From contig JAFTYN010000152.1 in assembly GCA_017461465.1 (NCBI GenBank), positions 1 through 49,237 of the forward strand: DNA of 49,237 nt. Reading direction: 5' to 3'. Positions 1 to 25,634 of this stretch are shown one piece after another. How positions within the stretch are numbered: position 1 is the first letter of the stretch; each line of letters opens with the position of its first letter. Origin of the DNA: Bacilli bacterium (GTDB lineage: Bacteria > Bacillota_I > Bacilli_A > RF39 > UBA660). Position numbers and translations under genes: made by a program. The notes beneath the pieces are model-generated. The model saw nothing but the letters and a program-made list of their open reading frames with translations, searched no databases and was not told the origin of the DNA.

Positions 1-83
1 GCCCCAAATACTAAAAGTGATATTATTGAAAATAATGTTATTACTGCTATTAACTCTATTAATGTAAATCCTTTTTTATTCAT
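1..83 (-). CDS. prepilin-type N-terminal cleavage/methylation domain protein (5' end only; gene runs off the left edge)
   Basis: The reverse complement of 1..83 starts at ATG (83..81) and reads MNKKGFTLIELIAVITLFSIISLLVFG. This is a short basic leader ending in Gly, then FTLIE with Glu at +5 and a hydrophobic helix, i.e. a class III (type IV pilin) signal. It is truncated, so it is absent from the ORF track. Confidence 0.6.
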   Translation of the reverse strand, partial: MNKKGFTLIELIAVITLFSIISLLVFG

Positions 84-140
84 ATCAACACATCCCTATT
101 TTATCTATATACAATTATACATTTTTTATTTATTATTTTC

Positions 141-168
141 AACAAAAAAGGACTAATAATTAGTCCTT
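141..168 (-). terminator. rho-independent terminator after parC, overlapping its stop codon
   Basis: Minus strand reads AAGGACTAA-TTA-TTAGTCCTT (9-bp stem, 148..168) followed by TTTTTGTT. The TAA stop at 160..162 lies inside the hairpin. Confidence 0.55.
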
Positions 169-2691: not shown

Positions 2692-2702
2692 TTAATCACC
2701 AA

Positions 2703-4622
2703 CTAACTTTCTATTTTATAACTGTCTTCTAAAGTAAAGACAACATTTTCTTCTATCCATTCTTTACGAGGCTCAACTTTATCCCCCATAAGCACACTTA
2801 CTCTTTTTTCTGCAAGGGCACCATCATTAATATTAACTCTAATAAGCATTCTAGTATCTGGGTTCATAGTAGTTTCCCAAAGCTGATCCGCATTCATTTC
2901 ACCAAGACCTTTATATCTTTGTACACCTGGTTTACCAGAGTTATTTTTTCTTATTTCATTAAGTTCTTCATCTGTCCAAGCATAAAAATGTTTTTTACCA
3001 TAATCAAGTTTATATAAAGGAGGAAGTGCTATATAAAGTTTTCCTGACTCAATTAATGGTTTCATATATCTATAGAAGAATGTAATTAATAATATTTGAA
3101 TATGTGCCCCGTCATCATCAGCATCGGTCATTATTATTACCTTATCATAATTAGAATCTTCTACTGTAAAATCTGATCCTACACCTGCTCCTATTGTATG
3201 AATCATTGTGTTTATTTCTTCATTCTTAAGTATTTCTTCCATACGAGCTTTTTCTGTATTTATAACTTTACCTCTTAGTGGAAGAATAGCTTGAAATTTA
3301 CGATCTCTACCACCTTTAGCAGAACCACCTGCTGAATCTCCTTCGACTAAGAATAATTCGTTCTTTTTAGGATTTTTAGTTTGAGCTGGAGCAAGTTTAC
3401 CTGATAAAGCTGTCTCTTTTTTGTTTTTGTCTTTACCACTTCTAGCTTCATCGCGAGCTTTTCTAGCAGCTTCTCTAACATTCTTACTCTTAATCATTTT
3501 ATTAACAAGATCTGTTGCTACTACCTTATTTTCTTCAAGATAGAATTGAAGTTTTTCACTAACAATGCTTTCAACAACATTTCTTGCTATTGGAGTTCCA
3601 AGTTTTCCTTTAGTTTGTCCTTCAAATTGAAGTAAATTTTCTGGAATTTGTAAAGATATAATAGCTGTTAAACCTTCTCTTGTATCTGGACCTTCTAAAT
3701 TCTTATCTTTATTTTTTAGAAAACCATTATTTCTAGCATAATCATTAAACACTCTAGTTATAGCAGTTTTTAACCCTACTTCATGAGAACCACCATCATT
3801 TGTTTTAACATTATTAACAAATGATACTATATTTTCTGAATAACTATCTGTATACTGGAATGCTACATCAACATTTATATTATTTTTAGAGCCATTAAAG
3901 TTTACTACTTTATTTATTTCTTTCTTATCTTCGTTTATATATTCTACAAAAGCAGATAAGCCGTTTTCATAATGGAATGATTCACTTCTTGCTTCTATTT
4001 CATCACATACTTCGATTGTTAAATCTTTAAGCAAGAAAGCACTTTCTTGCATTCTTTCAATAATTGTTGAATATGAAAAATTAGTAACTTGAAATATTGT
4101 TGGATCTGGTTTAAATGTTACTGTTGTACCAGTTTTGCTTGTTTTATCTAATTTCTTTAATGGAATTTTAGTATGACCACCTTTTTCAAATCTAATATAA
4201 TGTTCATACCCATCTCTTTTGATATTTACTTCCATCCATTCAGATAAAGCATTTACTACAGAACCACCTACACCATGAAGTCCACCTGAAACTTTATATC
4301 CACCAGTTTCAAATTTTCCTCCAGCGTGAAGTACTGTATATATTACTTCAGGTGTACTTTTACCTGAAGCATGCATACCAACAGGTACGCCTCTTCCTTC
4401 ATCTTGAACTGATAGTGATCCATCTTTATGTATTGTTATTTTAATTTTTTTACCATAACCATTAATAACTTCATCTATTGAGTTATCAACAATTTCCCAT
4501 ACTAGATGATGTAAGCCTCTTTTATCAGTAGACCCTATATACATACCAGGTCTTTTTCTTACAGCATCTAACCCTTCTAAGATTTTGATTGAATTTTCGT
4601 TATAATCATTATGTTTTACCAT
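2703..4622 (-). CDS. parE: DNA topoisomerase IV subunit B (ParE)
   Basis: Contains LEGLDAVRKRPGMYIGST, GLHHLVWEIVDNSIDE (GHKL ATPase), the EGDSAGG Toprim motif and PLRGKVIN. The ORF track starts at 4640. I prefer the ATG at 4622 (MVKHNDY) because AAGGTGA lies 5 nt upstream. Confidence 0.85.
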   Translation of the reverse strand: MVKHNDYNENSIKILEGLDAVRKRPGMYIGSTDKRGLHHLVWEIVDNSIDEVINGYGKKIKITIHKDGSLSVQDEGRGVPVGMHASGKSTPEVIYTVLHAGGKFETGGYKVSGGLHGVGGSVVNALSEWMEVNIKRDGYEHYIRFEKGGHTKIPLKKLDKTSKTGTTVTFKPDPTIFQVTNFSYSTIIERMQESAFLLKDLTIEVCDEIEARSESFHYENGLSAFVEYINEDKKEINKVVNFNGSKNNINVDVAFQYTDSYSENIVSFVNNVKTNDGGSHEVGLKTAITRVFNDYARNNGFLKNKDKNLEGPDTREGLTAIISLQIPENLLQFEGQTKGKLGTPIARNVVESIVSEKLQFYLEENKVVATDLVNKMIKSKNVREAARKARDEARSGKDKNKKETALSGKLAPAQTKNPKKNELFLVEGDSAGGSAKGGRDRKFQAILPLRGKVINTEKARMEEILKNEEINTMIHTIGAGVGSDFTVEDSNYDKVIIMTDADDDGAHIQILLITFFYRYMKPLIESGKLYIALPPLYKLDYGKKHFYAWTDEELNEIRKNNSGKPGVQRYKGLGEMNADQLWETTMNPDTRMLIRVNINDGALAEKRVSVLMGDKVEPRKEWIEENVVFTLEDSYKIES

Positions 4623-4695: not shown

Positions 4696-5421
4696 CTATA
4701 TAGTTTGTGCTTTTTTTACTTTAATTAATACTCCTACTGCAACAATCAATATAACTACTATACCAAAAATAATTAGAATACCATTATTGCTTTCATTATT
4801 TTCTTTTTTCACTATATCATAAGCATAATAACTTGTATAATCTAATTCTGCACTTGTAATTTTATTATTATTTAATAAGTAAGTGATAGTCATACCACTA
4901 GAATTTCCATAAGAACGATAATAATATACAATTTTATTTTCCTCTTTAACATTATCCATATATCGATAACGATAATTTGTATTATCTTTAGTATCTTTAT
5001 ATAGTATTGGCCATTCATCTTTATAAATAATTGCCACTTCACTATTTGCATTAACTATTGCATACTTTCTTCCTGATTCATCTTCATTGATGAATTTTAA
5101 TTTATTATAATAAACATGATATTCATTATCCTTTAAAAATACCCCATCTGAATCTTTTTCCTCTGTATAAGATTCAGGATTAAGTAGCATATTTTTAGTA
5201 AGATTTATACTTTTTTCATTTGATTCTTCATAATTTTTCAAATCATTTATTATTTTAATACTTTCATTTGGAAGTTTAGAATAATCATAATATATATCTT
5301 GATATAATTTTATAATCACATTAGACATTTCTTCTGTTTGACTTAGTAAATCCTTATTAGAGCAACCACATACACTAAAGACTAAAATAGATATAAAAAT
5401 TAATTTTAAATATTTTTTCAT
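4696..5421 (-). CDS. lipoprotein with C-terminal TM anchor, paralogue of 6631..7260 (function unknown)
   Basis: Signal peptide MKKYLKLIFISILVFSVCGC (lipobox-like VCGC). Tyr/Asn/Lys-rich ectodomain and a C-terminal hydrophobic helix GILIIFGIVVILIVAVGVLI. Blocks shared with 6631..7260: SNVIIKLY/SNIVVNLF and FLKDNEYHVYYN/YIKNNKCYVNYN. Confidence 0.6.
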   Translation of the reverse strand: MKKYLKLIFISILVFSVCGCSNKDLLSQTEEMSNVIIKLYQDIYYDYSKLPNESIKIINDLKNYEESNEKSINLTKNMLLNPESYTEEKDSDGVFLKDNEYHVYYNKLKFINEDESGRKYAIVNANSEVAIIYKDEWPILYKDTKDNTNYRYRYMDNVKEENKIVYYYRSYGNSSGMTITYLLNNNKITSAELDYTSYYAYDIVKKENNESNNGILIIFGIVVILIVAVGVLIKVKKAQTI

Positions 5422-5430
5422 CTATTCACC

Positions 5431-6570
5431 TCATTTAGCAGTATATGCAACAGCATACATAAAACCGCATTTTCCAAGTTCATTACATCTATTTTTGTGA
5501 TTATAAAATTTATTCCATAAATTTTCTAAAGTGTATGTTCCATTATTACTACCATTACCTGGATCAAGTAAAACAACTTCACCATTAGTTGCTGGGGTAA
5601 AAACAACGTAATGTCCTGGTATTAAAACCTCTATTGCTTTATTAGCTTTTAATGCATCTCTTATTTTAGTTAATTTTGCATCTTTTGATAATCCAGAACC
5701 ACGATAAAATAATACTTGAGCATTCATATCATATTTATTTAGCATATTTTGATTATATAAAGCAGCATCTTCAATTGCTCCCTTATTTGGTGATATTCCA
5801 GGATGAATATAAGCATGAACTGTTTTTGGATTAATATTACCATCATTATTTAAACCACTTGCTATCATAGCTAACGATGAATATCCACATCCAGATGAAC
5901 ATATAGTACTAGAACTACTACCAAATTTAACGCTTTTCCATCTTGAATCACACTGATTATAATATGGTAAATTAAGGGTATTACTTACTGAACCACTACT
6001 ACTACCTGATTTAACTCCACCACCATCATCTCTTTGTTTTCTTTTTGCTTCTTCTTCTTTTTTCTTTTCTTCTTCTTTACGTTTTTCTTCTTCTTTTATT
6101 TTTTTATCTACTTCTTTTAATCTAGTAGTAAATGTTTCTTTTAATTCCTCATCTTTTACTTTATTTACAGCAAGTTTTGCATCATCGTATATTAATCGTG
6201 ATAAATTTTGTTCTGCATTTACTACTAAACTATCTGCAATATTAATATATGCAGCGTCTACATATTCAGAATTAGCATTTTCAAAACAAGCTGCATATTC
6301 ATAATTTGAATCAGCTATTCCTATTACAAAATCTAAAATATATGGAACTAAAAAGATCAAGATTAAGCCTATAAATTTTTGAGGTATTCTTCTTACATTT
6401 TTACTTACTGCAGATTGATCTTGTGCCATAACTGCCTTAGCAATATCAATAGTTGTCATAATTATTACTGCTATTGGACCAATTATACATAATAATTTAA
6501 TTATTAATCTTACTATAACCATAACAGAAAGTATATCTGGATTATTACATGCTGCTATTACTAAACTCAT
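5431..6570 (-). CDS. membrane-hairpin-anchored C39-like (papain-fold) cysteine peptidase, probable cell-wall hydrolase
   Basis: N-terminus MSLVIAACNNPD, two TM helices around a basic loop (SKNVRRIPQKF), a Lys/Glu coiled-coil spacer and a G/S linker. These are followed by PYYNQ...SSGCGYSSLAMI (Cys), PGHYVVF (His) and LLDPG (Asp), as in Peptidase_C39_2-type domains. AGGAG lies 9 nt upstream of the ATG, and an in-frame TGA 2 codons upstream prevents extension. Confidence 0.6.
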   Translation of the reverse strand: MSLVIAACNNPDILSVMVIVRLIIKLLCIIGPIAVIIMTTIDIAKAVMAQDQSAVSKNVRRIPQKFIGLILIFLVPYILDFVIGIADSNYEYAACFENANSEYVDAAYINIADSLVVNAEQNLSRLIYDDAKLAVNKVKDEELKETFTTRLKEVDKKIKEEEKRKEEEKKKEEEAKRKQRDDGGGVKSGSSSGSVSNTLNLPYYNQCDSRWKSVKFGSSSSTICSSGCGYSSLAMIASGLNNDGNINPKTVHAYIHPGISPNKGAIEDAALYNQNMLNKYDMNAQVLFYRGSGLSKDAKLTKIRDALKANKAIEVLIPGHYVVFTPATNGEVVLLDPGNGSNNGTYTLENLWNKFYNHKNRCNELGKCGFMYAVAYTAK

Positions 6571-6588
6571 ACATCATCACTCCTATTT

Positions 6589-6599
6589 TAATTATATCA
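6589..6599 (-). promoter_or_regulatory. extended -10 promoter element (TGATATAATTA) for 5431..6570 unit
   Basis: Minus strand reads TGATATAATTA about 20 nt upstream of the AGGAG RBS. The identical 11-mer occurs upstream of 7262..8545, ftsK and murD. Confidence 0.45.
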
Positions 6600-6601
6600 A
6601 A

Positions 6602-6636
6602 TAAAAAAAGAATAACAAAGATAAACTTTGTTATTC
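6602..6636 (-). terminator. rho-independent terminator after lipoprotein 6631..7260, overlapping its stop
   Basis: Perfect 11-bp stem GAATAACAAAG/CTTTGTTATTC (6610..6636) followed on the minus strand by TTTTTTT. Confidence 0.65.
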
Positions 6637-7260
6637 ACTAGTTATATAATTATTTATATTTTCAAAACTTGTTTCTATTTTCTCTATATCTTTACCATCT
6701 AGATACATTTTAACAACTAATCCAGTTCCATCATATGAAGAGTTATATAAGAAATAATATCCTTTATCAAACTTTACACTTTGTTTATATACATAATCAT
6801 ATTTAGGATTATCCTTATTTTCTTCATAATTCATATAAAAATCACTTTCGTATAAGATAGTATAATAATTATTACAAACTAAATATTTTTGTAGTTCTAA
6901 TTCGTAAGAAGGGTCATTTTCTTCTTTTATATAATCAAACCCTAAATCATTATAATTTACATAGCATTTATTATTTTTAATATATACTTCTTTAGAATTA
7001 GGTTCATTAACTTTATATTCATCATTCTTAATAATAAAATCAGTTAAATCTATCTCATGATTTTTATGAGTTAATGTATTTAAGTATTCATCTATTTTCT
7101 TTTTATCTTTTTCATCTATATCTTTAGAATCATATTTTTCACTAGTAAATAGATTAACTACAATATTAGATATATTTTTATAGTATTCAAAATTCTTATT
7201 TGTACATCCAGTTAGTAAGACTAATCCTAATAACATTAATATAGTTAATTTCTTTTTCAT
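6631..7260 (-). CDS. lipoprotein, paralogue of 4696..5421 (function unknown)
   Basis: Signal peptide MKKKLTILMLLGLVLLTGC with the canonical lipobox LLTGC. It starts 1 nt after the stop of the M23 gene. The Tyr/Asn/Asp-rich ectodomain shares blocks with 4696..5421. Confidence 0.65.
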   Translation of the reverse strand: MKKKLTILMLLGLVLLTGCTNKNFEYYKNISNIVVNLFTSEKYDSKDIDEKDKKKIDEYLNTLTHKNHEIDLTDFIIKNDEYKVNEPNSKEVYIKNNKCYVNYNDLGFDYIKEENDPSYELELQKYLVCNNYYTILYESDFYMNYEENKDNPKYDYVYKQSVKFDKGYYFLYNSSYDGTGLVVKMYLDGKDIEKIETSFENINNYITSE

Positions 7261-7261
7261 C

Positions 7262-8545
7262 TTATCCTCCTGCCTTTATTTTATATCCTTTAGCATGTTT
7301 AGGCATTCCGTATATAGCTTCTATTTTCCAAGTTGTTAAGCCAGAATTATAATTACTACCTGGATATATAGTCATATGAAGGTGTGGTGCCCAACCAATA
7401 CTTGTACTAGTACCTGCTGCATTACCAACAAATCCAAGTAATTCACCTTTTTTTACTTTACGATTACAAGATGAAGTACTACTACACCTATATCTTATAC
7501 CAGACATATGTGTTAAAAAGATTGTATCTACTGACTGACCTTGTACAGTTTGAGCTTTATTTAATTTTATAGATACACTATAAGCTGTTTCATCTCCACC
7601 TTTATTACTTGTATGTCCCCACTCAGAATACATTAAAGTACCATCTACTGGTGAATATATTGGAGTTCCAAAATAGGCCATAAAATCTATACCATTATGC
7701 TCATAAACAAAATTATAAACTCCATCTACCGGTGTGGTTGGCATTATAAAAATACCATATGTTTTATAATTAGTAAGTTGTGTTGGAATAGAACCATAAT
7801 TTTTAGGCCATGCTCCTAATGGAAGACCAGTTTTAGAATCTTTTGGATAAACAAAATTACTAGCGCTTATTACTTTTCTTCCGGCCCAGTAATTAACTGC
7901 TGCTGAAGGATCAGGCTCTCTAGATTGTGCTACACCTGGCTGAGCTATTCCTTTTCCACTACTAGAATATGAACCAGATGTCGATAAATTGCCAGTTCCT
8001 GATACATTAGAACCATCATTTTTATTTTGTTCTTGTTCAGCTTTCTTTTTTGCTTCTTCCTCTTCTTTTTTCTTCTTTATTGTTTCTTTTACAACATCTA
8101 TTCTTTCATTATAATTAGCTTGTTTTTCTTCATCTTTAAGCTTATTAATTGCAAGTTTAGCTTCTTCTACATCTAAATAGTTAAGTGATTCTTCTGCTTT
8201 TAAAACAGCATTATCCGCTTTTGTCAAATATGCCTGGGCAATATTTTCTTTTGTAGCTCCTACAAAACATGAATTATATTCATAAGAAGAATCAACTATA
8301 TTCATAACTACCTGAATAAAAGTTGGGACAAAAAATATTAATACCATGGCAATCATTTTCTTTGGTATTTTTGCTTTTTCCTTAGCAACCATATTTTCAT
8401 CATTGGCAATTACCGTCTTGACTAAACTAATCATCATAGCAATTATTAGCGCTATTGGCGCAACAATTTTTAATACATTAATCATTTGATTTACTAAATA
8501 CATAACAGATAGTAAATCAGGATTGCTACATACTGTTAATAACAT
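7262..8545 (-). CDS. membrane-hairpin-anchored M23 (LytM-type) metallopeptidase, probable peptidoglycan endopeptidase
   Basis: M23 motifs are HNGIDF (HxxxD), THMSGI...KKGELLGFVGN and APHLHMTIY (HxH). The N-terminal Cys, two-TM hairpin and K/E coiled coil are paralogous to 5431..6570. The ORF track starts at TTG 8590. I prefer ATG 8545 (MLLTVCSNPD) because GGAGG lies 7 nt upstream and the N-terminus then matches its paralogue. Confidence 0.75.
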   Translation of the reverse strand: MLLTVCSNPDLLSVMYLVNQMINVLKIVAPIALIIAMMISLVKTVIANDENMVAKEKAKIPKKMIAMVLIFFVPTFIQVVMNIVDSSYEYNSCFVGATKENIAQAYLTKADNAVLKAEESLNYLDVEEAKLAINKLKDEEKQANYNERIDVVKETIKKKKEEEEAKKKAEQEQNKNDGSNVSGTGNLSTSGSYSSSGKGIAQPGVAQSREPDPSAAVNYWAGRKVISASNFVYPKDSKTGLPLGAWPKNYGSIPTQLTNYKTYGIFIMPTTPVDGVYNFVYEHNGIDFMAYFGTPIYSPVDGTLMYSEWGHTSNKGGDETAYSVSIKLNKAQTVQGQSVDTIFLTHMSGIRYRCSSTSSCNRKVKKGELLGFVGNAAGTSTSIGWAPHLHMTIYPGSNYNSGLTTWKIEAIYGMPKHAKGYKIKAGG

Positions 8546-8565
8546 AACTATACCTCCTACCATAC

Positions 8566-8576
8566 TAATTATATCA
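8566..8576 (-). promoter_or_regulatory. extended -10 promoter element (TGATATAATTA) for 7262..8545 unit
   Basis: Minus strand reads TTTTGATATAATTAGTATGGTAGGAGG. It lies just downstream of the ftsK terminator. Confidence 0.45.
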
Positions 8577-8593
8577 AAATAAGATGTCAAAGC

Positions 8594-10852: not shown

Positions 10853-10880
10853 ATAAAAGAAAAAATGCTAAAAAGCATTT
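10853..10880 (-). terminator. rho-independent terminator after pilin gene 10880..11281
   Basis: Minus strand reads AATGCT-TTTT-AGCATT followed by TTTTTCTTTT, directly after the stop. Confidence 0.5.
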
Positions 10881-11281
10881 TAATTCGAGCATATAGTATT
10901 GCAATCTTCTTTAAATTCAATTGGACTTCTAGATATATCAAAATTAGTAGTTAACTCTTCTTCATTAATTTCTTCTACACTTCTTACTCCATCACTAAGT
11001 TCATATAAAACAATATCTTCACCAATTAATTTCCAGTAGCCAGTAAATTTAGTACCTTTAATTTCTAAATTATCAATACAACCACATGAACGATTATATT
11101 CTATAACTTCTATCGTTCTAATATTTTTTACTAATGTTTTAACATTATCCCTAAATAAATTATCTTTAGCTTCATTAGTTATACGAGTATAAATTGGCAT
11201 TACAATACTACCAATTATCCCAAGAACAATTACAGCTGCTAGAAGTTCCATAAGTGTAAAACCTTTATTTTTTCTATTCAT
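10880..11281 (-). CDS. prepilin-type (type IV pilin/pseudopilin-like) protein
   Basis: MNRKNKG|FTLMELLAAVIVLGIIGSIV is a class III signal with Glu+5. Small 133-aa protein with 4 Cys in the globular part (CGC...C..IC). Confidence 0.75.
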   Translation of the reverse strand: MNRKNKGFTLMELLAAVIVLGIIGSIVMPIYTRITNEAKDNLFRDNVKTLVKNIRTIEVIEYNRSCGCIDNLEIKGTKFTGYWKLIGEDIVLYELSDGVRSVEEINEEELTTNFDISRSPIEFKEDCNTICSN

Positions 11282-15033: not shown

Positions 15034-18000
15034 TTATCTAGTTAAGGTTATTGATGCAGCGTTTCCTGTTGGGAATGTTCCTGCAGCATATGTATTCCCA
15101 TCACTGCCTGTAAATGCATAAGATGTAATGTTTGACATAGAGACAGTTGAAGGTATATTTTTAGGAGTTTTAATTGTTTTTAGATTCGTTGTACCATTAA
15201 ACATAGATGACATATAATCTAAATTAGAACTTAATGACCATGAACTTAAATCTAGTGATGTTAAACTAGTAATTCCATAGAACATAGATGAAAGAGTTGT
15301 CACCTTTTCTACGTTCCATCCTGATACATTTATATTAGATATTTTCGAATTATAAAACATATAGGACATACTTGTTACATTCGCTGTATTAAAATGTCTT
15401 AAATCTAATGAAGCTACATTTGTAGTATCAAACATAGATGACATACTTGTAACTTTACCCGTATTCCATCCTGACACATTTATTGTTGTGGCTTTTGCGG
15501 TTTCAAACATAGCTGACATACTTGTTACATTCGCTGTATTAAAATGACTTAAATCTAATGTTGCTACATTCGTGCCGTAAAACATATACGACATGTTTGT
15601 AACTTTCCCTGTGTTCCATCCTGATGTATTTATTGCGGTAGCTTTAGAACCATAAAACATATATGACATATTAGTTACATTTGATACATCGAGAGATGAT
15701 AAATTTAATGTCGTAGCAGCAGTAGCGCGAAACATATATGACATATTTGTTACTTTTGAGGTATTCCATCCTGAAACATTTATTGTTGTGGCTTTTGAAC
15801 TATAAAACATCGAATTCATACTTGTAACATTTGCTGTATTGAAATGACTTAAATCTAATGTTGCTACATTCGTGCCGTAAAACATAGACGACATACTTGT
15901 AACTTTTCCTGTGTTCCATCCTGATGTATTTATTGCGGTAGCTTTAGAATTATAGAACATACATGACATATTAGTTACATTTGATGTATTAAAATGAGAC
16001 AAATCTAGTGTTGTCGCAGCAGTATCACTAAACATATATGACATATTTGTTACCTGACTAGTATCCCATCCTGACACATTTATTGTTGGAGCTTTCATGT
16101 TATAAAACATATACGACATATTAGTCACATTTGAAGTATTCCATGTCGATAAATCTAAACTTTCTACTGCTTCTAAATATTCAAACATACCACTCATATT
16201 AGTAACCCTATGTGTATTAAAATGACTTAGATTTAAGTTTAGTAAAACATTATTACCATCATCCATATAATATCTATCAGCACGTCTCATTGAAAACATA
16301 TAGCTCATATCAGTTACATTTGATGTATCCCATCCGTTTAAATTTATTGATGACAAATTATAATTATAATGAAACATCGAAGACATATCTTTAACTTTTT
16401 CAGTATCAAAGGAACTCAAATCAAGTGATTCAATATAACATAGTCCCTCAAACATATGACTCATATCTTCTACATTAGCTGTATCCCATCCTGAAAAATC
16501 AATTTCAGCGATATCTGAACAATAATATGTTTGTGATGGGCGAAAAACAAGATTTTCAATACTATTATTCTTATTTAATCCATCTAAAATACTAGGTGTT
16601 AATTTTTTTGTATCACTCTTTAAATAGTCATCATATGCATATGATGAATCATGTCCAGCAAACATATATGACATATCTACAACATTTGAAGTATCAAAAG
16701 AACTAAGATCTAACGTTCCTAATGAGCACATTCCTTCAAACATATGGCTCATATTTTGAACACTAGATGTATCCCAATTAGTTAAATCTAAATTTGTTAT
16801 ATTAGAGCAATTAAATACTGAAGCATCGTCTCCTATAACAACCAACTGTTCAATATTGTTTTTATCATTAAAATTATTTAAATAATTTATTTTAAAATCA
16901 TCCAATATATTAGCACTAATAGGATCTACATCTTCTTCATCATAACCAGCAAACATATATGACATATTTACAACATCTGAAGTATCATAATTTTCAAAAT
17001 TTACTGTATATAAGTTATCTAAACGATAAAACCAGTATGAAGAATCTATATTGGCTTTTATTGTACCATTACTTCCAATATACATATTGTAATATCCTGC
17101 ATTAGATGCACTTTCTATAATCCAACCTTTTATAGAATTATCTTTGGCTTCTGATAAATCCCAAGTTGCTACTGCATTTGCAGGAATATCAACATTATCT
17201 ATAAAGGAAATAGAAGTAATATTAGGTGCATATGAAGAACTTCTAAAACCACCCGATAAAAGTCCTGCTGAATAAGTTTCTAAATAAGAATATTTAGAAA
17301 CTAAAGTAATTTTTCTGTTTTTAGAAACTGAATTGCCACTTTTATCAGTTGCTATATAAGTAATGATATATTCACCTGGTCTATTATAATTAATAGTACC
17401 ACTAGTCTTAATTGTAGGAGCTACCCCACTATTATCTGTAGCAGTAACTCCTTCCATTAGATTTAAAGTTTCTCCTATTCCTATTTCTAAATCTTCAGGA
17501 ACATTTAGTTCTGGTGCTGTTGTATCTACTACATATACTTTTCTTGTTAATGTTTTTGATATACCATTTTCAATAATTGTATATTTAGCATGATAATCTT
17601 TTCCTAATACTTTTAAATTAACATTGTTTGATTTTACTATACTAGAACTCATATCTTCACCAGCTGAACTTTTTGCAGTTGCACCTGGATCAAATGAAGC
17701 ATAAGTTAAAGTACTATCATTTGTTATTTCTATTTTTTGAGGATTATCTCCTAACAAGTATATTGATGGTGTTTTAGATACTGCTTCACAATCTTTTAAA
17801 TTACCATCTATAAGCTCTTCATCTAAAAAAGTATATTCATATGTATCTTTTTCATTATCTTTTACTCTTGTTATTTTAAACTGCATTGTATTTGCTAAAC
17901 AAGTACTTGTTTTAGGATTTTTTATTTCATATTCGATATAACCTTGCTCTTTTAAATCTGCTAAAGTTACTATTATTTCTTCGCCATCTTCATATATTAG

Positions 18001-18186
18001 TTCTTTATTATCTGTAACCCAGTTTCTTAATCCATCTTTTAATGTATCTTTTGTTCTATTATAAGCATTATTCTTTGTTTTAGTTATAATATAGTCTACT
18101 GATGGAATTGCTATTAATGCTATTAAACCTATTAATATTACTACTCCTATTAACTCTACAAGTGTAAAACCTTTTCTACTTTTCAT
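15034..18186 (-). CDS. modular giant pilin: prepilin N-terminus + pilin module + two Ig-like (DUF5011-type) domains + ~20 DUF285/BspA-type leucine-rich repeats
   Basis: MKSRKG|FTLVELIGVVILIGLIALI. Residues 1 to about 133 align with the 134-aa pilin encoded upstream, including both Cys. Next come LLGDNP...DPGATAKSSAGEDMS and TTAPEL...VTATDNSG...GEYIITYIATDKSGN (Ig-like). About 20 repeats of the form (D/N)TxxV(T/V)xMSxMF follow. Confidence 0.8.
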   Translation of the reverse strand: MKSRKGFTLVELIGVVILIGLIALIAIPSVDYIITKTKNNAYNRTKDTLKDGLRNWVTDNKELIYEDGEEIIVTLADLKEQGYIEYEIKNPKTSTCLANTMQFKITRVKDNEKDTYEYTFLDEELIDGNLKDCEAVSKTPSIYLLGDNPQKIEITNDSTLTYASFDPGATAKSSAGEDMSSSIVKSNNVNLKVLGKDYHAKYTIIENGISKTLTRKVYVVDTTAPELNVPEDLEIGIGETLNLMEGVTATDNSGVAPTIKTSGTINYNRPGEYIITYIATDKSGNSVSKNRKITLVSKYSYLETYSAGLLSGGFRSSSYAPNITSISFIDNVDIPANAVATWDLSEAKDNSIKGWIIESASNAGYYNMYIGSNGTIKANIDSSYWFYRLDNLYTVNFENYDTSDVVNMSYMFAGYDEEDVDPISANILDDFKINYLNNFNDKNNIEQLVVIGDDASVFNCSNITNLDLTNWDTSSVQNMSHMFEGMCSLGTLDLSSFDTSNVVDMSYMFAGHDSSYAYDDYLKSDTKKLTPSILDGLNKNNSIENLVFRPSQTYYCSDIAEIDFSGWDTANVEDMSHMFEGLCYIESLDLSSFDTEKVKDMSSMFHYNYNLSSINLNGWDTSNVTDMSYMFSMRRADRYYMDDGNNVLLNLNLSHFNTHRVTNMSGMFEYLEAVESLDLSTWNTSNVTNMSYMFYNMKAPTINVSGWDTSQVTNMSYMFSDTAATTLDLSHFNTSNVTNMSCMFYNSKATAINTSGWNTGKVTSMSSMFYGTNVATLDLSHFNTANVTSMNSMFYSSKATTINVSGWNTSKVTNMSYMFRATAATTLNLSSLDVSNVTNMSYMFYGSKATAINTSGWNTGKVTNMSYMFYGTNVATLDLSHFNTANVTSMSAMFETAKATTINVSGWNTGKVTSMSSMFDTTNVASLDLRHFNTANVTSMSYMFYNSKISNINVSGWNVEKVTTLSSMFYGITSLTSLDLSSWSLSSNLDYMSSMFNGTTNLKTIKTPKNIPSTVSMSNITSYAFTGSDGNTYAAGTFPTGNAASITLTR
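15190..17010 (-). repeat. coding tandem-repeat array (DUF285/BspA LRR units, ~69-75 nt) with a near-identical 300-bp higher-order repeat at 15481..15780 / 15781..16080
   Basis: Lines 15481-15780 and 15781-16080 align at an offset of exactly 300 nt. One shared run of 43 identical nt is ATGACTTAAATCTAATGTTGCTACATTCGTGCCGTAAAACATA. Confidence 0.85.
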
Positions 18187-18580
18187 ATTCTACCTCACAA
18201 CTTTCTGTAAATCTTATATTATTTTCATCTTGAAATTTATAAGTATAATTATTATTTTTTCTAGTAATAACTATTACTGTATCATTAGAAATGCACATTT
18301 CATTAATTGGATTAATAACATCTACTTCTATAAATCCACCTAGTTTTAAATCTCCTAAAGTTATATATACATAATCGCCATCTACGGTAGGAAGCTCCAT
18401 CATATTAGATGCTCCATAATCTTTAGCAGCACTTAATATTACCTCTTTTTGATTTTCATAACCTTTTTCTCTAGTTGACTTAATAACTGCATCTATAGTT
18501 GGTATTGTTATGAGCGCTAAAACACCAATTAGTGTTATGACTGCTAAAATTTCTACTAAAGTAAATCCTCTATTTCTCAT
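18176..18580 (-). CDS. prepilin-type (type IV pilin-like) protein, first gene of pilin operon
   Basis: MRNRG|FTLVEILAVITLIGVLALITIP with two Cys (EMCISN...ESCE) typical of a pilin D-region. It overlaps the next gene by 11 nt. Confidence 0.8.
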   Translation of the reverse strand: MRNRGFTLVEILAVITLIGVLALITIPTIDAVIKSTREKGYENQKEVILSAAKDYGASNMMELPTVDGDYVYITLGDLKLGGFIEVDVINPINEMCISNDTVIVITRKNNNYTYKFQDENNIRFTESCEVEYEK

Positions 18581-19886: not shown

Positions 19887-21140
19887 CTAAAAGTTAAGCA
19901 TTATCCATTCTGGTTTAAATATTAATAGTAAGCCTATAATAATCATTATTATACCGCCAACTAAATGTGCAAATTTACTATATTTTGTAGTAACACCACT
20001 TATCTTTAAAGTTAACATTGCTATTATAAATATAGCTAAATCATCTATCAAGAAAAATAATATATATATTAAAATATATCCTATTTTCATTAATCCATCT
20101 ATATTATTTAATTCTAGTATTGTAATAAAGATAGTTGGAAAGCCAGCTGAGCAAGCAAGTTCTACTAAGTTAACACTAGCTGCTAAAGCTATTATACCAA
20201 TTAGAGCTATAAGTAGGTTTTGCTCTGCTGTCAAAGCTTTTATTTTTGTAAAATACTTCTTTCTTTTCTTTTCATCAACCACATGGCATCCATCTTCTTT
20301 GGCTGTTAAATAACTTCTTAAGTTAAGAACGCCTCCTATAATGGCAACTAAAGCAATTATTCTTCTTACCCATGTTATAGCTGCAAAACTAAGTACTACT
20401 GATAATCCTAACATTGCTAAGAAATAAACAAATGCTGATGTTACTAAGAATGTTGTTCCTAAAAGCCACATTTTCTTTCTATTTTTCATATTAAATAACA
20501 TATTAATTAGAAATAATAAAATCCAAAGTGCACATGGGTTAAAACCATCTATAAATCCTAATATAATAGCAATTAATGGTATTGATGCTTCTTTAGCATC
20601 TATTTTTCCCAATAAAGGAATATCATATTCTGTATTTTCTTTTTTCTTTGTTTCTTCTTTTTCTTCTAACTTAGGTTCTTCATCTATTTCTTCTTTTGGT
20701 TCTTCTAAAGCTGGTGTTTCTACTTCAGTATTATCATTATAATAACTATCTAAAGTTGCTTTCATTCTTGAACCAATAGAAGCCATGTATCCATTAAAAA
20801 ATTCATCACCTATAACAGTAAAAGGCACTCCAGTAGAAGTAGAGCCCATTCTATCTTTGGCAATTTTCATATAATCATAATTAGTACCAGAAGATACTTC
20901 GTAACTTCTAATAACTAAGTTCGGATAATCTTTTTTGATACTTTCTAAAAACTTTTTTTCTGCTTTACAGTGAGAACAAGTATCACTATGAAAAAAATAT
21001 ATAGTTACAGTTTCACTTTTCTTTTCTCCAACAATATCATAGATTTTATCTTCAAACTGCTTAGCATTTACTAATTGAGGAAATATTAAAAATGATATTA
21101 CTAATAAAAATGTTAATAAATATTTCTTTAATTTATTCAT
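19887..21140 (-). CDS. secreted thioredoxin/glutaredoxin-fold domain (CSHC) fused to a CcdA/DsbD-like polytopic membrane domain
   Basis: Signal peptide ending in VNA. The Trx-like fold shows FFHSDTCSHCKAEKKF and a cis-Pro GVPFTVIG. A Glu/Lys linker leads to about 6 TM helices with membrane-embedded Cys in GFNPCALWILLF and ELACSAGFP. Confidence 0.55.
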   Translation of the reverse strand: MNKLKKYLLTFLLVISFLIFPQLVNAKQFEDKIYDIVGEKKSETVTIYFFHSDTCSHCKAEKKFLESIKKDYPNLVIRSYEVSSGTNYDYMKIAKDRMGSTSTGVPFTVIGDEFFNGYMASIGSRMKATLDSYYNDNTEVETPALEEPKEEIDEEPKLEEKEETKKKENTEYDIPLLGKIDAKEASIPLIAIILGFIDGFNPCALWILLFLINMLFNMKNRKKMWLLGTTFLVTSAFVYFLAMLGLSVVLSFAAITWVRRIIALVAIIGGVLNLRSYLTAKEDGCHVVDEKKRKKYFTKIKALTAEQNLLIALIGIIALAASVNLVELACSAGFPTIFITILELNNIDGLMKIGYILIYILFFLIDDLAIFIIAMLTLKISGVTTKYSKFAHLVGGIIMIIIGLLLIFKPEWIMLNF

Positions 21141-21393
21141 ACTTTTTTATAACACTTTCTATATCTTCAAATTTCTTTTCCCCTATTAATCTTTCTAGTT
21201 CAGTATCATCTTTATAAAATATAGTAACTGGAAGTATATCTCCAATATTATATTTTTTTACTTCTTCTTCATCCATATCTAAGTCTAAACTTTTTACTTC
21301 TATATTAGGATACTCTTTATTAATTTTATCCCATACTTTATGCATCACAATACATCCAGGGCACCACATAGCCCCTATTTTTATTACTTTCAT
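21133..21393 (-). CDS. small cytoplasmic thioredoxin
   Basis: 86 aa with the WCPGC active site and no signal peptide. It overlaps the downstream gene by 8 nt. Confidence 0.8.
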   Translation of the reverse strand: MKVIKIGAMWCPGCIVMHKVWDKINKEYPNIEVKSLDLDMDEEEVKKYNIGDILPVTIFYKDDTELERLIGEKKFEDIESVIKKYE

Positions 21394-23133: not shown

Positions 23134-23178
23134 AATATCACCTAGTCATAATTATACCATACAATATATAAAATCTAA

Positions 23179-23204
23179 TAAAAAAACAAAGCAAATTGCT
23201 TTGT
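23179..23204 (-). terminator. rho-independent terminator after 23205..23603
   Basis: Minus strand reads ACAAAGCA-ATT-TGCTTTGT (23186..23204) followed by TTTTTTT. Confidence 0.6.
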
Positions 23205-23603
23205 TTAGTATATACCACATGTTCCGGTTGATGAACCAGATATTTCAAATAATGAAAGTACAAAGTTAAGTAATGATGGTACTAGGAATAATAGACCTAT
23301 TGCTATTAATCTAGTAACAAATCTTTTATTAGCTTTAGCCATACTATCATCATTAGAACCAAATATAGCTTTTACATAATCTGCTATTTGAAGAATTACC
23401 GCTAAAGCAATACCTGCTATTCTAATATAATCTAAAATAGTTTGTAATAGTTCTTTTAATTCTCCACCATCTACAATTTCGCATCCTTCTTTAGCAACTA
23501 ATTCTACTTTTGTTTCAATTTCTACTGCTAAAGCAGGCTCTACCAAAATAAATATTAATAATCCAATAAATAAAATATTATACCATTTAAAAAACTTCTT
23601 CAT
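23205..23603 (-). CDS. secreted protein consisting of signal peptide + Cys-flanked two-helix membrane hairpin, C-terminus GTCGIY (unknown family; VirB2/TrbC-like topology)
   Basis: Preferred start MKKFFKW at 23603 (TAATG overlap with the upstream stop). Signal peptide ends ...EPALA. The segment EGCEIV...ELLQTILDYIRIAGIALAVILQIADYVKAIFGSNDDSMAKANKRFVTRLIAIGLLFLVPSLLNFVLSLF...GTCGIY is roughly 80% identical at DNA level (by eye) to the 3' end of 24073..25179. Confidence 0.6.
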   Translation of the reverse strand: MKKFFKWYNILFIGLLIFILVEPALAVEIETKVELVAKEGCEIVDGGELKELLQTILDYIRIAGIALAVILQIADYVKAIFGSNDDSMAKANKRFVTRLIAIGLLFLVPSLLNFVLSLFEISGSSTGTCGIY

Positions 23604-23995
23604 TAAAAACCACACTCTAAATTTACTTTCATTTCATAATCATCCTCTGTATAAGGATTTTGTGGATATATTATAACATAAGTTTCGTTATAATTACATT
23701 GTTTTTTAGTTTGATTATTAACAAATTCTTTTGGATCTTCATAATAAATAGCGGAAATAAGTTCTGATAAACCAACTTTCATTCCGTCCTCTGTATAACT
23801 ACCTAACTCATCTACATTATTAACAGTAGGTAAATATACTTTTTGATAATATGTTGCACCTAATACACCAAGTTTATTTTTTAATCTTTCCTCTTGATTA
23901 TCATGCTCAATACTTTTTCTAGCTATACCAAGAACCATAGTTGCTGCAAGCATTATAGCAAATATAATTATAGGTTTCTTAAAATCAGTCTGCAT
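23603..23995 (-). CDS. bitopic membrane protein ending in ECGF, paralogue of 25182..25601 (function unknown)
   Basis: Preferred start MQTDFKK at 23995 (AGGAGG lies 8 nt upstream; the ORF-track start at 24013 is TTG). One TM helix, then a domain with two conserved Cys (KKQCNY...LECGF). Confidence 0.6.
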   Translation of the reverse strand: MQTDFKKPIIIFAIMLAATMVLGIARKSIEHDNQEERLKNKLGVLGATYYQKVYLPTVNNVDELGSYTEDGMKVGLSELISAIYYEDPKEFVNNQTKKQCNYNETYVIIYPQNPYTEDDYEMKVNLECGF

Positions 23996-24045
23996 ATATA
24001 ATTCCTCCTGCAATATAAGTATAATATATTTTTAAAAGAAAAGCA

Positions 24046-24074
24046 AAGAAAAAACCAAAGTTAAACTTTGGTTT
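24046..24074 (-). terminator. rho-independent terminator after 24073..25179, overlapping its stop
   Basis: Minus strand reads AAACCAAAG-TTTAA-CTTTGGTTT followed by TTTTCTTT. Confidence 0.6.
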
Positions 24075-25179
24075 AAAAAATTCCACATGTTCCAGCTTCG
24101 GCAGCATCTAAGATATTAAATAATGAAAGTACAAAGTTTAATATTGAAGGTATTAAAAATAATATTCCTATTGCTATTAATCTAGTTGAAAAACGTTTAT
24201 TTGCTTTAGCCATTCCATCATCTGATGAACCAAATATCGCCTTTATATAGTCCGCTATTTGAAGAATTACAGCAAGGGATATACCAGCTATTCTAATATA
24301 ATCTAAAATAGTTTGCAATAATTCAGTAAGTTCTGAAGATAATAAAGCACACCCCTCTTTAGCTTCCATATCTACATCAACACTTATATTAACGCCATCT
24401 GATTTAGTACCCCCACCACTTTTTTTATCTTCTTCTGTTTGTGGTTTATTTTGTTCTTCTAAAGTTTCTGCATCTGGCGTTTCAGAACCAACTACTGTTG
24501 TACTCATTCCACCTTGAGAAGTTTTAGAAATACCACATGTAGGTGTTCCACCTCTTTCAGTACAATTCAAATGAAGCGAAGGACAACTTAATTTACCATT
24601 TGAACCTACAAAGTCACTTGCTTTAATTTCACTACTACCTACTTGATATTTACTAGTTAATTCTGATTCTAGTGTTTTACCATCAGTATGGAAGGTCACC
24701 TTTCCACCATAACTACAGCTTATTCTTTCTGTTTTTGGTTCATCTTCTTTAACTTCAGTTAATGGTTTATTATTGTTCGTTGAATCACTAGTCAAAGCTA
24801 TTTTTGATGCTCCTGACTGACTAGTAAATGTTAAAGAATATGTTGCTGATCTACCACTCGAAGATGTTATTTTTTGATATAAAGTGCTAGGACAAGATAG
24901 TTTATTTGTTGACTTATTAATAAAGTTAGCTGATGTTATATTGTCCATATTATTTGTTACTGAACCACCTGCTATATTTTGAGTTGGGACACATGACTTT
25001 TTTAAATCAGCTGTACCTGTTCCAGTTGCTTCTAGAGAAAAAGTGCATTTAAAAAGCCCAACATTATAAACACACGTAGCACATGAATATTTATTGCAGT
25101 CACCTGCATTAGCTACATCAATATTAACAAAAAATGCTAAAAATAATAAAAATAATAAAAACTTAAAATTCCTTTTCAT
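24073..25179 (-). CDS. secreted Cys-rich protein with C-terminal Cys-flanked two-helix membrane hairpin, C-terminus GTCGIF
   Basis: Preferred start MKRNFKF at 25179. Signal peptide ends ...VANA. The roughly 270-aa Cys/Ser/Thr-rich ectodomain carries an internal duplication (ITSANFINKSTNKLSCPS / IKASDFVGSNGKLSCPS). An acidic linker is followed by the same hairpin module as 23205..23603. Confidence 0.6.
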   Translation of the reverse strand: MKRNFKFLLFLLFLAFFVNIDVANAGDCNKYSCATCVYNVGLFKCTFSLEATGTGTADLKKSCVPTQNIAGGSVTNNMDNITSANFINKSTNKLSCPSTLYQKITSSSGRSATYSLTFTSQSGASKIALTSDSTNNNKPLTEVKEDEPKTERISCSYGGKVTFHTDGKTLESELTSKYQVGSSEIKASDFVGSNGKLSCPSLHLNCTERGGTPTCGISKTSQGGMSTTVVGSETPDAETLEEQNKPQTEEDKKSGGGTKSDGVNISVDVDMEAKEGCALLSSELTELLQTILDYIRIAGISLAVILQIADYIKAIFGSSDDGMAKANKRFSTRLIAIGILFLIPSILNFVLSLFNILDAAEAGTCGIF

Positions 25180-25181
25180 AA

Positions 25182-25601
25182 CTAAAACCCACATTCTAAT
25201 TGATATTCTATTTCATAATCCTTTTTTTGGTATGGTTCCTTTGGATAAATAACTACATAACTTTTATCATAATCACATTTTTCATTTACTTTTTCATTAA
25301 TAAAAAATTCAGGATCTTCATTATATACATTTAGAATTAAAGTTCCTAAATCAACTTTTATTCCAATATCCTTTAATATATCTAGATATTCTTCTTTTTC
25401 TCCATCGATTGAGTCATAATAAATTTCTTCATAATACACAACTCCTAAACTCTCTAGTCGATAATTTAGTTCATCTTCTTTATTTCCTTTACCTAAAAGA
25501 CTAGAACCAATCATTAAGGCAATTGAAATAATAATAAAAACTATTAATAAAATTATTTTTGTTCTGTTTTCTTCTAAAAAATCACTAAAACTATAATCCA
25601 T
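25182..25601 (-). CDS. bitopic membrane protein ending in ECGF, paralogue of 23603..23995
   Basis: Preferred start MDYSFSDF at 25601 (AGGAG lies 8 nt upstream). One TM helix, then GIKVDLGTLILNVYNEDPEFF...NEKCDYDKSYVVIYPKEPY...YQLECGF. Confidence 0.6.
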   Translation of the reverse strand: MDYSFSDFLEENRTKIILLIVFIIISIALMIGSSLLGKGNKEDELNYRLESLGVVYYEEIYYDSIDGEKEEYLDILKDIGIKVDLGTLILNVYNEDPEFFINEKVNEKCDYDKSYVVIYPKEPYQKKDYEIEYQLECGF

Positions 25602-25625
25602 ACTTATTACTCCTATTCTAAAAAC

Positions 25626-25634
25626 ATTATAACA
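25626..25634 (-). promoter_or_regulatory. extended -10 promoter (TGTTATAAT) of the 25601..24073 unit
   Basis: Minus strand reads TTTATGTTATAATGTTTTTAGAATAGGAG, immediately after the upstream terminator. Confidence 0.45.

Follow-up and report, generated by a model that had tools for sequence, protein, structure and literature searches.

The stretch of DNA analyzed here, which we refer to as the window, covers positions 1 to 49,237 of contig JAFTYN010000152.1 from an uncultured gut Bacilli bacterium (GenBank assembly GCA_017461465.1, a metagenome-assembled genome) and contains a tandem duplication of a 2-gene unit on the minus strand. The first gene in each unit encodes a small bitopic protein with a single transmembrane (TM) helix and the C-terminal residues ECGF, here called ECGF, and the second gene encodes a secreted protein with a C-terminal 2-helix hairpin. 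We refer to the genes in unit B as ECGF-B and hairpin-B (or pilin-B), and to the genes in unit A as ECGF-A and hairpin-A (or pilin-A). All 4 genes were annotated as "hypothetical protein" by NCBI. Their positions are listed in Table 1, along with those of other window genes discussed below.

The ECGF-B and hairpin-B genes were joined by the sequence TAGTTATG (TAG-TT-ATG), which leaves a spacer of 2 nucleotides, and the start codon of hairpin-A overlapped the stop codon of ECGF-A in the sequence TAATG. These junctions, the gene coordinates and the 2 terminators that overlap stop codons had been described in an initial annotation made from the sequence alone, and all of them were confirmed by the open reading frames (ORFs) and by reading the sequence; 2 terminator-like sites were found in the region as compared to 0.4 expected in shuffled sequence. 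The initial annotation had also given each unit its own ribosome-binding site and promoter region. Both ribosome-binding sites were recovered, while a separate promoter for each unit is at most plausible: a scan for consensus promoters with 2 hexamers yielded nothing convincing (13 sites vs. 19.8 expected) and did not pick up the candidate extended -10 box TGTTATAAT, which was read by eye upstream of ECGF-B.

The ECGF-A and ECGF-B proteins were 38% identical over 112 amino acids (aa), with an E-value of 9e-27, and shared the conserved blocks and the identical ECGF terminus noted initially. The C-terminal 108 aa of the 2 hairpin proteins were 71% identical (E = 1e-44), and the nucleotide identity of the hairpin-coding 3' ends, estimated by eye at about 80%, was measured at 76% over 300 nucleotides. 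The paralogy of units A and B thus far exceeds chance. It was also noted that the 2 hairpin segments (23217..23483 and 24085..24351) were 72% identical at the amino acid level and 76% at the nucleotide level, as compared to 42% to 56% amino acid identity for orthologs in related species, whereas their partner ECGFs within the window were just 33% to 38% identical. This suggests either gene conversion limited to the 3' ends or a strong constraint on the hairpin, with divergence of the partners. If the partner recognizes the conserved hairpin, the simplest reason why each pilin has kept its own partner would be that the 2 units are separate transcription units that need a fixed stoichiometry.

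Table 1. Positions of the ECGF-hairpin units, their putative expression signals and the hydrolase block in the window
Feature	Position	Strand	Description and basis
ECGF-B, bitopic, 139 aa	25182..25601	minus	ORF and translation; residues 16-34 (approximately) form the TM helix; the extracellular domain (about 100 aa) has 2 invariant Cys; C-terminus ECGF
Hairpin-B (pilin-B), 368 aa	24073..25179	minus	Signal peptide, Cys-rich ectodomain and C-terminal VirB2-like 2-helix hairpin
Hairpin-B ectodomain, about 260 aa	24352..25104	minus	
Hairpin-B 2-helix hairpin	24085..24351	minus	Cys277 and Cys365 at its flanks
ECGF-A, bitopic, 130 aa	23603..23995	minus	TM helix at about residues 7-25; ectodomain at residues 34-130 with C100 and C128
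Hairpin-A (pilin-A), 132 aa	23205..23603	minus	Signal peptide, short N-terminal stub and hairpin; without cargo domain
Hairpin-A VirB2-like hairpin	23217..23483	minus	Cys41 and Cys129 at its flanks
Terminator-like hairpin and T-run	24042..24074 (stem-loop 24074-24052)	minus	Overlaps the hairpin-B stop codon; 10-bp stem
Terminator-like hairpin and T-run	23174..23206 (stem-loop 23206-23184)	minus	Overlaps the hairpin-A stop codon
Candidate extended -10 box	25634..25626	minus	Upstream of ECGF-B
Ribosome-binding site AGGAG	25614..25610	minus	8 nucleotides before ECGF-B; read from sequence
Ribosome-binding site AGGAGG	24004..24009	minus	8 nucleotides before the ECGF-A start codon; read from sequence
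442-aa protein	7262..8590	minus	N-terminal T4SS_pilin-like hairpin, coiled coil, Peptidase_M23
209-aa lipoprotein	6631..7260	minus	Follows the 442-aa protein
379-aa protein	5431..6570	minus	N-terminal T4SS_pilin-like hairpin, coiled coil, Peptidase_C39_2-like domain
241-aa lipoprotein	4696..5421	minus	C-terminal TM helix; follows the 379-aa protein

The hairpin proteins were compared with the family T4SS_pilin (PF18895), which represents pilins of type IV secretion systems (T4SSs) and has a gathering threshold of 26.6 bits. The hairpin-A protein scored 27.4 bits (E = 3.6e-6), just over this threshold, and showed weak additional matches to the TrbC/VirB2 family (PF04956 TrbC) and to the Mbov_0395 family of NCBIfam. 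The hairpins of L010 (27.3 bits) and L013 (25.6 bits) also scored at or near the threshold. Hydrophobic segments were located at residues 4-22, 52-70, and 100-118 in hairpin-A and at residues 5-23, 287-305, and 335-353 in hairpin-B, which corresponds to a Sec-type signal peptide and 2 TM helices, with a short, basic, K/R-rich loop between the helices that is conserved as DYxKAIFGSxDDxMAKANKRF. According to the positive-inside rule, the predicted topology is N-out/C-out with the loop in the cytoplasm. A signal peptide, 2 TM helices and a charged loop is the architecture that defines VirB2-like proteins, including the Gram-positive PrgF (bioRxiv 10.64898/2025.12.18.695078). With 132 aa, hairpin-A falls within the size range of about 50 to 150 aa used for VirB2-like pilins, whereas hairpin-B (368 aa) and its relatives (250 to 630 aa) fall outside it. 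The initial annotation could not assign either protein to a known family. This holds for ECGF, whereas the hairpin proteins are best described as a borderline, divergent subfamily of the T4SS_pilin/VirB2-like pilins, with profile scores at the threshold for hairpin-A and below it for hairpin-B.

Across loci, the identity of the hairpin, including the cytoplasmic loop, ranged from 35% to 72% as compared to 20% to 47% for the ECGF ectodomain. The conservation of the hairpin and its loop well beyond that of the ECGF ectodomain argues for a cytoplasmic or membrane machine that recognizes the hairpin. A short hairpin ortholog with an aberrant loop was observed at positions 2008..2388 of locus L009, where the sequence CFSGKCYLVVKVNLLFLTK stands in place of IFGSxDDSMxKANK. 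A frameshift pair or an error in the assembly could account for this difference, as could early decay.

The ECGF proteins in the window had no match in Pfam, NCBIfam, PHROG, or the sequences of the PDB, and a Pfam scan of 61 members of the family yielded TM-helix noise. Likewise, searches of PDB sequences with the ECGF and hairpin family profiles gave nothing meaningful. An exhaustive profile search seeded with both window ECGFs identified 562 representative clusters with E ≤ 1e-3, of which 258 reached E ≤ 1e-10, with protein lengths of nearly always 125 to 185 aa. A search of this kind was required, since a word-indexed homolog search with 3 queries returned near-identical sequences only. A profile scan of genome contigs with a narrower ECGF alignment recovered 4 loci, all with stand-alone ECGF genes. 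The family is defined by an N-terminal TM helix or lipobox, followed by a domain of roughly 100 aa that contains 2 invariant cysteines and the motifs LGxxFYExxYY, GIKVxL, and xVxIYP. The invariant residues in the alignment of the 61 members were Y50, G71, C100, and C128, and the ectodomain is probably disulfide-bonded. In the following, L numbers refer to contig loci carrying relatives and P numbers to representative proteins of the ECGF family. The metagenomic protein P0017 (273 aa) is a lipoprotein with 2 tandem ECGF domains but without the TM helix, which, along with the 2 invariant cysteines, places the domain outside the cell. This protein also implies that the domain works independently of its usual anchor.

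The AlphaFold2 model of ECGF-A had a mean confidence score (pLDDT) of 91 for the full-length protein and 95.5 for the ectodomain alone, and consisted of a 52-residue N-terminal helix, formed by the TM segment running on outside the membrane, and a small alpha/beta domain with 2 C-terminal cysteines. Foldseek searches of the PDB and the BFVD with the full-length and ectodomain models gave no match with an E-value below 0.5. A VirB8-like or NTF2-like identity for ECGF was considered and rejected, since there was no VirB8, TcpC, or TraM among the Foldseek matches in the PDB for either model and no Pfam match to VirB8. Judged from its members and this model, ECGF is a large, unnamed and previously undescribed family with a confidently predicted fold.

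To follow the pairing of the 2 genes beyond the window, relatives were retrieved in 3 directions. A metagenome search with the hairpin only yielded loci L011 to L015, where an ECGF gene stood a few nucleotides before each hairpin gene; 2 tandem ECGF-hairpin units were present in L011 and likewise in L014. From the ECGF side, contig look-ups revealed the pair in L009 (in order, a hairpin protein longer than 509 aa, ECGF, a 126-aa hairpin, and NifS), L010 (ECGF and a hairpin protein of 314 aa), L019 (a pair truncated where the contig ends), and L020/21 (ECGF and a hairpin protein of 386 aa). A short loop after helix 4 was common to the coupled ECGFs. Coupling to a pilin gene was predicted beforehand from this short loop for P0039, P0066, and P0031, and all 3 predictions were correct, with downstream genes for hairpin proteins of 628, 370, and 528 aa, respectively, while the long-loop control P0028 showed no hairpin coupling. 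In all of the retrieved loci, every hairpin gene of the clade with its upstream side on the contig had an ECGF gene that ended no more than 15 nucleotides away or overlapped it, as expected for the conserved partner pair proposed in the initial annotation.

Many ECGFs with a long loop ("PYGK") stood alone in varied contexts, as for P0013 (L001/2), the ECGFs of L005 and L006-8, and P0019, which indicates that the pilin partnership belongs to one subfamily and not to the whole family. The short-loop pair was found in 3 different neighborhoods: between HD-domain and NifS-thioredoxin genes in the window, L003, L009, L011, L013/15, L022, and L025/26; between PheT and YqfD in L020; and within a T4SS cluster in L023. 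The 3 differing neighborhoods indicate that the pair moves as a unit.

The T4SS cluster was identified in L023, a metagenomic contig of 31 kb. Here, a gene for a bare hairpin of 116 aa was followed by an ECGF gene (137 aa) that overlapped the gene for a hairpin protein of 370 aa with a PF18895 match. Directly downstream were genes for a polytopic, VirB6-like protein of 650 aa, which matched the Mbov_0396/MMCAP2_0566 models of integrative and conjugative elements (ICEs) with E-values of 1e-10 to 1e-12, a 104-aa PrgI-like (VirB3-like) protein, and VirB4, which matched the Mbov_0397 family (E = 1.6e-57) and the CD1110 family (E = 3.8e-30). The ECGF-hairpin pair thus belongs to a T4SS operon in at least one organism. 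Upstream at positions 1..4502, and apparently in one orientation, were genes for a T2SSE ATPase, 2 polytopic proteins, 3 pilin-like proteins (one of 81 aa and two of 141 aa), and a ParA-like protein of 336 aa. This Tad/Flp-like set, located directly upstream of the T4SS genes, may form a combined type IV pilus and T4SS locus.

The ectodomain of the hairpin proteins, which had been estimated at about 35 aa in hairpin-A and 270 aa in hairpin-B, was measured at about 25 and 260 aa, respectively. The hairpin-B ectodomain contained 10 cysteines, out of 12 in the whole protein. Across relatives, the ectodomains ranged from about 25 to about 530 aa, in line with the variation in size implied by the initial description of a variable displayed cargo. 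Arbitrary sequence was not what was found, as the hairpin-B ectodomain was homologous to those of L010, L011 (first unit), L014 (first unit), and L020 at 22% to 40% identity, and the long ectodomains fall into at least one further family. The cargo is therefore a small set of conserved modules and not freely varying sequence.

An alignment of 15 hairpins, which included hairpins with C-terminal cargo, contained a cysteine after helix 2 ("TCG") in all 15 sequences and a cysteine before helix 1 (a "GC" motif) in 14 of them, with displacement by a few residues in the remaining one. Both flanking cysteines would be located on the outer face, where they may form a disulfide staple that ties the ends of the hairpin together. 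The T-pilin and the TrbC pilin of RP4 undergo head-to-tail cyclization. By analogy, the putative staple would be topologically equivalent to cyclization of the pilin, while still permitting the fusion of a domain to either end. The possibility that the C-terminal C-x-x-x is a CaaX-like motif was rejected, as the cysteine of L022 and L025 is located 6 to 9 residues before the end and the C-terminus is predicted to be extracytoplasmic.

The explanation that we favor, with a probability of about one half, is that hairpin-A and hairpin-B are VirB2-type pilin paralogs, one bare and one with an ectodomain, and that each has a co-translated ECGF partner that represents a new accessory of monoderm T4SS pili. 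The pilins would belong to the kind of T4SS found in monoderm bacteria and mycoplasma ICEs, with a T4SS core encoded elsewhere in the genome. If the pilins polymerize, the bare hairpin-A could be the major subunit and hairpin-B a minor or adhesin subunit that decorates the pilus or the cell surface. The ectodomain of hairpin-B would point outward, because the termini of VirB2, including the N-terminus, face the pilus exterior (bioRxiv 10.64898/2025.12.18.695078). ECGF would be translated first from each translationally coupled bicistronic message, insert into the membrane in an N-in/C-out orientation, and bind the pilin as it emerges from Sec, through contacts with the extracellular stubs and the membrane helices. 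In this manner, it could act as a pilin-specific holder or adaptor, which either keeps a membrane pool competent for assembly or adapts the pilin to a VirB6-type platform. A broader version, which we put forward tentatively and consider rather doubtful, is that ECGF is a widespread, so far unrecognized accessory of monoderm T4SS pili (a pilin chaperone or adaptor), and that spore-forming, free-living Bacilli keep chromosomal arrays of disulfide-stapled VirB2-like proteins, some with adhesin domains, that build a non-conjugative, T4SS-derived filament for adhesion or cell-cell contact.

Several observations weigh against the identification of the hairpin proteins as T4SS pilins. The hairpin-B protein scored only 22.3 bits on PF18895 (E = 1.4e-4), under the gathering threshold, and the hairpins of the relatives ranged from 19.5 to 27.3 bits, several of them also under the threshold. 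In addition, hairpin-B and its relatives of 250 to 630 aa far exceed any characterized VirB2 in size. The cut-off of 40 bits for NF045849, the Mbov_0395 family of pilin-like conjugal transfer proteins in NCBIfam, was reached by none of hairpin-A (18.9 bits, E = 8.8e-4), hairpin-B (13.8 bits), and the L023 hairpin (18.7 bits); with scores so far under the cut-off, the hairpins are, by sequence, not members of this equivalog. Moreover, the small membrane proteins encoded beside VirB6 and VirB4 in mycoplasma ICEs have been described as VirB3-like and not as VirB2-like (PMC12857230). Apart from L023, none of the loci with a pair, including the window, contained a homolog of VirB4, VirB6, VirB3, or VirD4 (288 kb searched in total), and when the VirB4, VirB6-like, and VirB3-like proteins of L023 were compared by tblastn with the window and all 27 loci, no match was obtained outside L023. 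VirB6 and VirB4 genes were thus located close to the pair in L023 alone, and every polytopic protein in the window was assigned to something else. The core-chromosomal position of the locus, with synteny across several species, is also unusual for conjugation genes. As for ECGF, the basic function of the family may be something else, since many of its members have no pilin neighbor. Finally, a mirror-tree (Mantel) comparison of ECGF and hairpin distances gave r = 0.54 and p = 0.014 but was dominated by one close pair, and this result is not used as evidence for co-evolution.

The window has a GC content of 26.6% and represents the core chromosome of a spore-forming, low-GC member of the Bacillota, with genes for gyrA, gyrB, ftsK, murD, thrS, cdsA, uppS, rseP, CotE, and a Germane protein. 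The ECGF-hairpin units are flanked by an HD-domain gene and a metallophosphoesterase gene on one side and by a gene for a NifS-type cysteine desulfurase on the other. Features that would point to an ICE, for instance a DDE recombinase or a coupling protein, were not found in the window.

A second tandem duplication of a 2-gene unit was observed at positions 4696..8590 on the minus strand, in which the first gene of each unit encodes a hydrolase with an N-terminal hairpin and the second a lipoprotein (Table 1). The hairpins of the 2 hydrolases matched a purpose-built hidden Markov model of the pilins with E-values of 5e-8 and 3e-7, and matched the 116-aa hairpin of L023 with 32% identity and an E-value of 1.4e-8. 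The 2 proteins look like the VirB1-type cell-wall (peptidoglycan) hydrolases of monoderm T4SSs, and their presence in the window provides supporting context for the T4SS pilin explanation. The 4-gene block was absent between ftsK and gyrB in L013/L015.

Positions 19887..21393 on the minus strand contained 2 adjoining genes, one for an 86-aa cytoplasmic thioredoxin (WCPGC) and the other for a 417-aa protein with a signal peptide, a thioredoxin-like ectodomain with the CxxC motif CSHC, and 6 TM helices; the latter is CcdA/DsbD-like, with sub-threshold matches in Pfam. The gene pair was kept 2 to 3 genes downstream of the units in L003, L009, L011, L013/15, L022, and L025/26, and from this association it may serve as the disulfide machinery for cysteine-rich surface proteins. 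Type IV pilin N-methylation motifs were identified in the window proteins encoded at 10880..11281, 15034..18186, and 18176..18580 on the minus strand, one of which is a protein of 1050 aa with 7 DUF285 stretches and Ig-like domains. Similar giant N_methyl proteins, of 530 aa in L007 and 956 aa in L011, were encoded directly upstream of ECGF genes.

We considered 4 other explanations for the ECGF-hairpin units. The locus could serve in surface display independently of any T4SS, with the VirB2-like hairpin co-opted as a 2-helix anchor and ECGF as a stoichiometric co-subunit in a 3-helix bundle, and with neither a pilus nor a secretion machine. The displayed cargo would be the N-terminal, cysteine-rich, adhesin-like domain in hairpin-B and the C-terminal hydrolase domains in the 2 other hairpin proteins of the window. 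The lack of T4SS core genes in the window and in 11 related loci fits such a role, as does the conserved core synteny of the locus and the fusion of the hairpin to cargo at either end among 4 proteins of the window, and the extracytoplasmic thioredoxin/CcdA-like system conserved 2 to 3 genes away would suit disulfide-rich surface proteins. However, the loop and both helices are conserved far beyond the needs of a passive anchor, hairpin-A has essentially nothing to display, and in L023 the pair lies inside a T4SS operon, which makes this explanation possible but unlikely in our judgment. If the units were instead the decaying remnant of an integrated conjugative element without a current function, the scattering of T4SS-type parts (pilin-like genes and hairpin-hydrolases) without ATPases would be accounted for, and so would the 4-gene hydrolase block, which is an insertion relative to L013/L015. 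Decay is difficult to reconcile with 4 intact ORFs that have ribosome-binding sites, coupled junctions, and terminators, and with the retention of the pair, also in tandem copies, at the same core locus in at least 6 species-level relatives (hairpin identity of 42% to 72%). Furthermore, tblastn searches of both proteins against plasmid and phage collections and scans of viral contigs with both alignments gave no match, and hence no evidence for an origin from a mobile element. A remnant is therefore considered improbable.

The 2 remaining explanations are very improbable, to a similar degree. A small, coupled 2-gene membrane unit in tandem duplication is superficially similar to toxin/immunity cassettes, and the hairpin could be imagined as the pore former of a membrane-active toxin, holin, or bacteriocin, with ECGF as its protector. 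Yet there was no match to a PADLOC-type, PHROG, or bacteriocin family, the hairpin proteins carry a signal peptide for Sec and most of them also a large, structured ectodomain, and the supposed toxin part is highly conserved and not diversifying. The housekeeping synteny and the T4SS operon in L023 also stand against a toxin. Alternatively, ECGF itself could be an unprocessed type IV (N-methyl) pilin-like protein that works with nearby type IV pilin genes and not with the hairpin. The order of its secondary structure elements, with the long N-terminal helix, the small alpha/beta domain and the 2 C-terminal cysteines, is reminiscent of such pilins, N_methyl genes adjoin ECGF in L007 and L011 and are located near ECGF in the window, and the top matches in Foldseek were type 4 pilins, including the monoderm entry 8pfb. 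These matches were non-significant for both the full-length and the ectodomain models, with E-values of 0.5 to 1.5 and TM-scores of 0.2 to 0.3, and a pilin-like label for ECGF was dropped for this reason. Nor was there a match to N_methyl or a class III signal peptide or a conserved N-terminal Gly or Glu (Glu5) in the 61 aligned members, and the invariant neighbor of the short-loop subgroup was the hairpin gene and not an N_methyl gene.

VirB2-like pilins have been recognized only recently in the T4SSs of Gram-positive bacteria and in Patescibacteria, where insertion, holding and assembly have to proceed without the helpers of Gram-negative systems. In this respect, the locus adds a coupled partner family with a predicted fold that is unmatched in the PDB, natural fusions of pilins and cargo, and a cysteine pair that possibly replaces cyclization. 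If ECGF is a pilin chaperone or adaptor, it would offer a handle on pilus biogenesis in monoderms, and the short-loop subgroup of ECGFs could be used as a marker for pilin genes that are missed by sequence searches. If the hairpin is a T4SS-independent anchor, the locus would illustrate the co-option of a pilin fold for display at the cell surface. The hairpin proteins themselves are divergent representatives of a known type. Not described in the literature that we searched are the obligate partner family, the fusions to N-terminal ectodomains, the conserved cysteine pair, and, for a spore-forming member of the Bacilli, a tandem arrangement in the core chromosome.

Among known systems, the VirB2/TrbC pilins share with the hairpin proteins the signal peptide, the 2 TM helices, the short, charged cytoplasmic loop and the predicted placement of both termini outside, together with a match to PF18895 at the threshold, and the L023 relative is encoded beside VirB6-like, VirB3-like, and VirB4 proteins. 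The first Gram-positive example of the VirB2 type is PrgF of pCF10 (bioRxiv 10.64898/2025.12.18.695078, December 2025). The locus described here differs by its core-chromosomal position with no T4SS gene in 49 kb, by the N-terminal ectodomain of about 260 aa in one paralog (up to about 530 aa in relatives), by the cysteine pair at the flanks of the hairpin where the T-pilin and TrbC are cyclized, and by an obligate upstream partner gene, which has been described for no VirB2.

The best NCBIfam matches of the hairpin were to the mycoplasma ICE module, which consists of the pilin-like Mbov_0395, the polytopic, VirB6-like Mbov_0396, and the VirB4 protein Mbov_0397. These proteins, we infer, correspond to CDS15, CDS16, and CDS17 of ICEA, which are essential for conjugation (PMC6030558). 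The order of hairpin, polytopic protein, and VirB4 in L023 is also found in mycoplasma ICEs (PMC6030558, PMC12857230), and the hosts are in both cases low-GC Bacilli or Mollicutes-related bacteria. Unlike the ICE module, the hairpin in the window scored 18.9 as compared to the cut-off of 40, the window is without ICE features, and no ECGF partner has been described in mycoplasmas.

In the VirB2-like arrays of Patescibacteria/Saccharibacteria, PF18895 is among the profiles by which the proteins are detected (PMC12102498). The hairpins in the window were 72% identical to each other, whereas the mean identity in these arrays is about 25% (PMC12102498). Furthermore, the host here is a spore-forming member of the Bacilli and not an epibiont with a reduced genome, and the intervening gene was identified as belonging to a conserved family, ECGF. 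A functional counterpart to ECGF may be TraQ of the F plasmid, a small, bitopic inner-membrane chaperone for the TraA propilin that is needed before assembly. Although TraQ lacks the disulfide-containing extracellular domain of about 100 aa, ECGF would resemble it, by analogy in function and not by homology, as a small, bitopic protein that is dedicated to its pilin.

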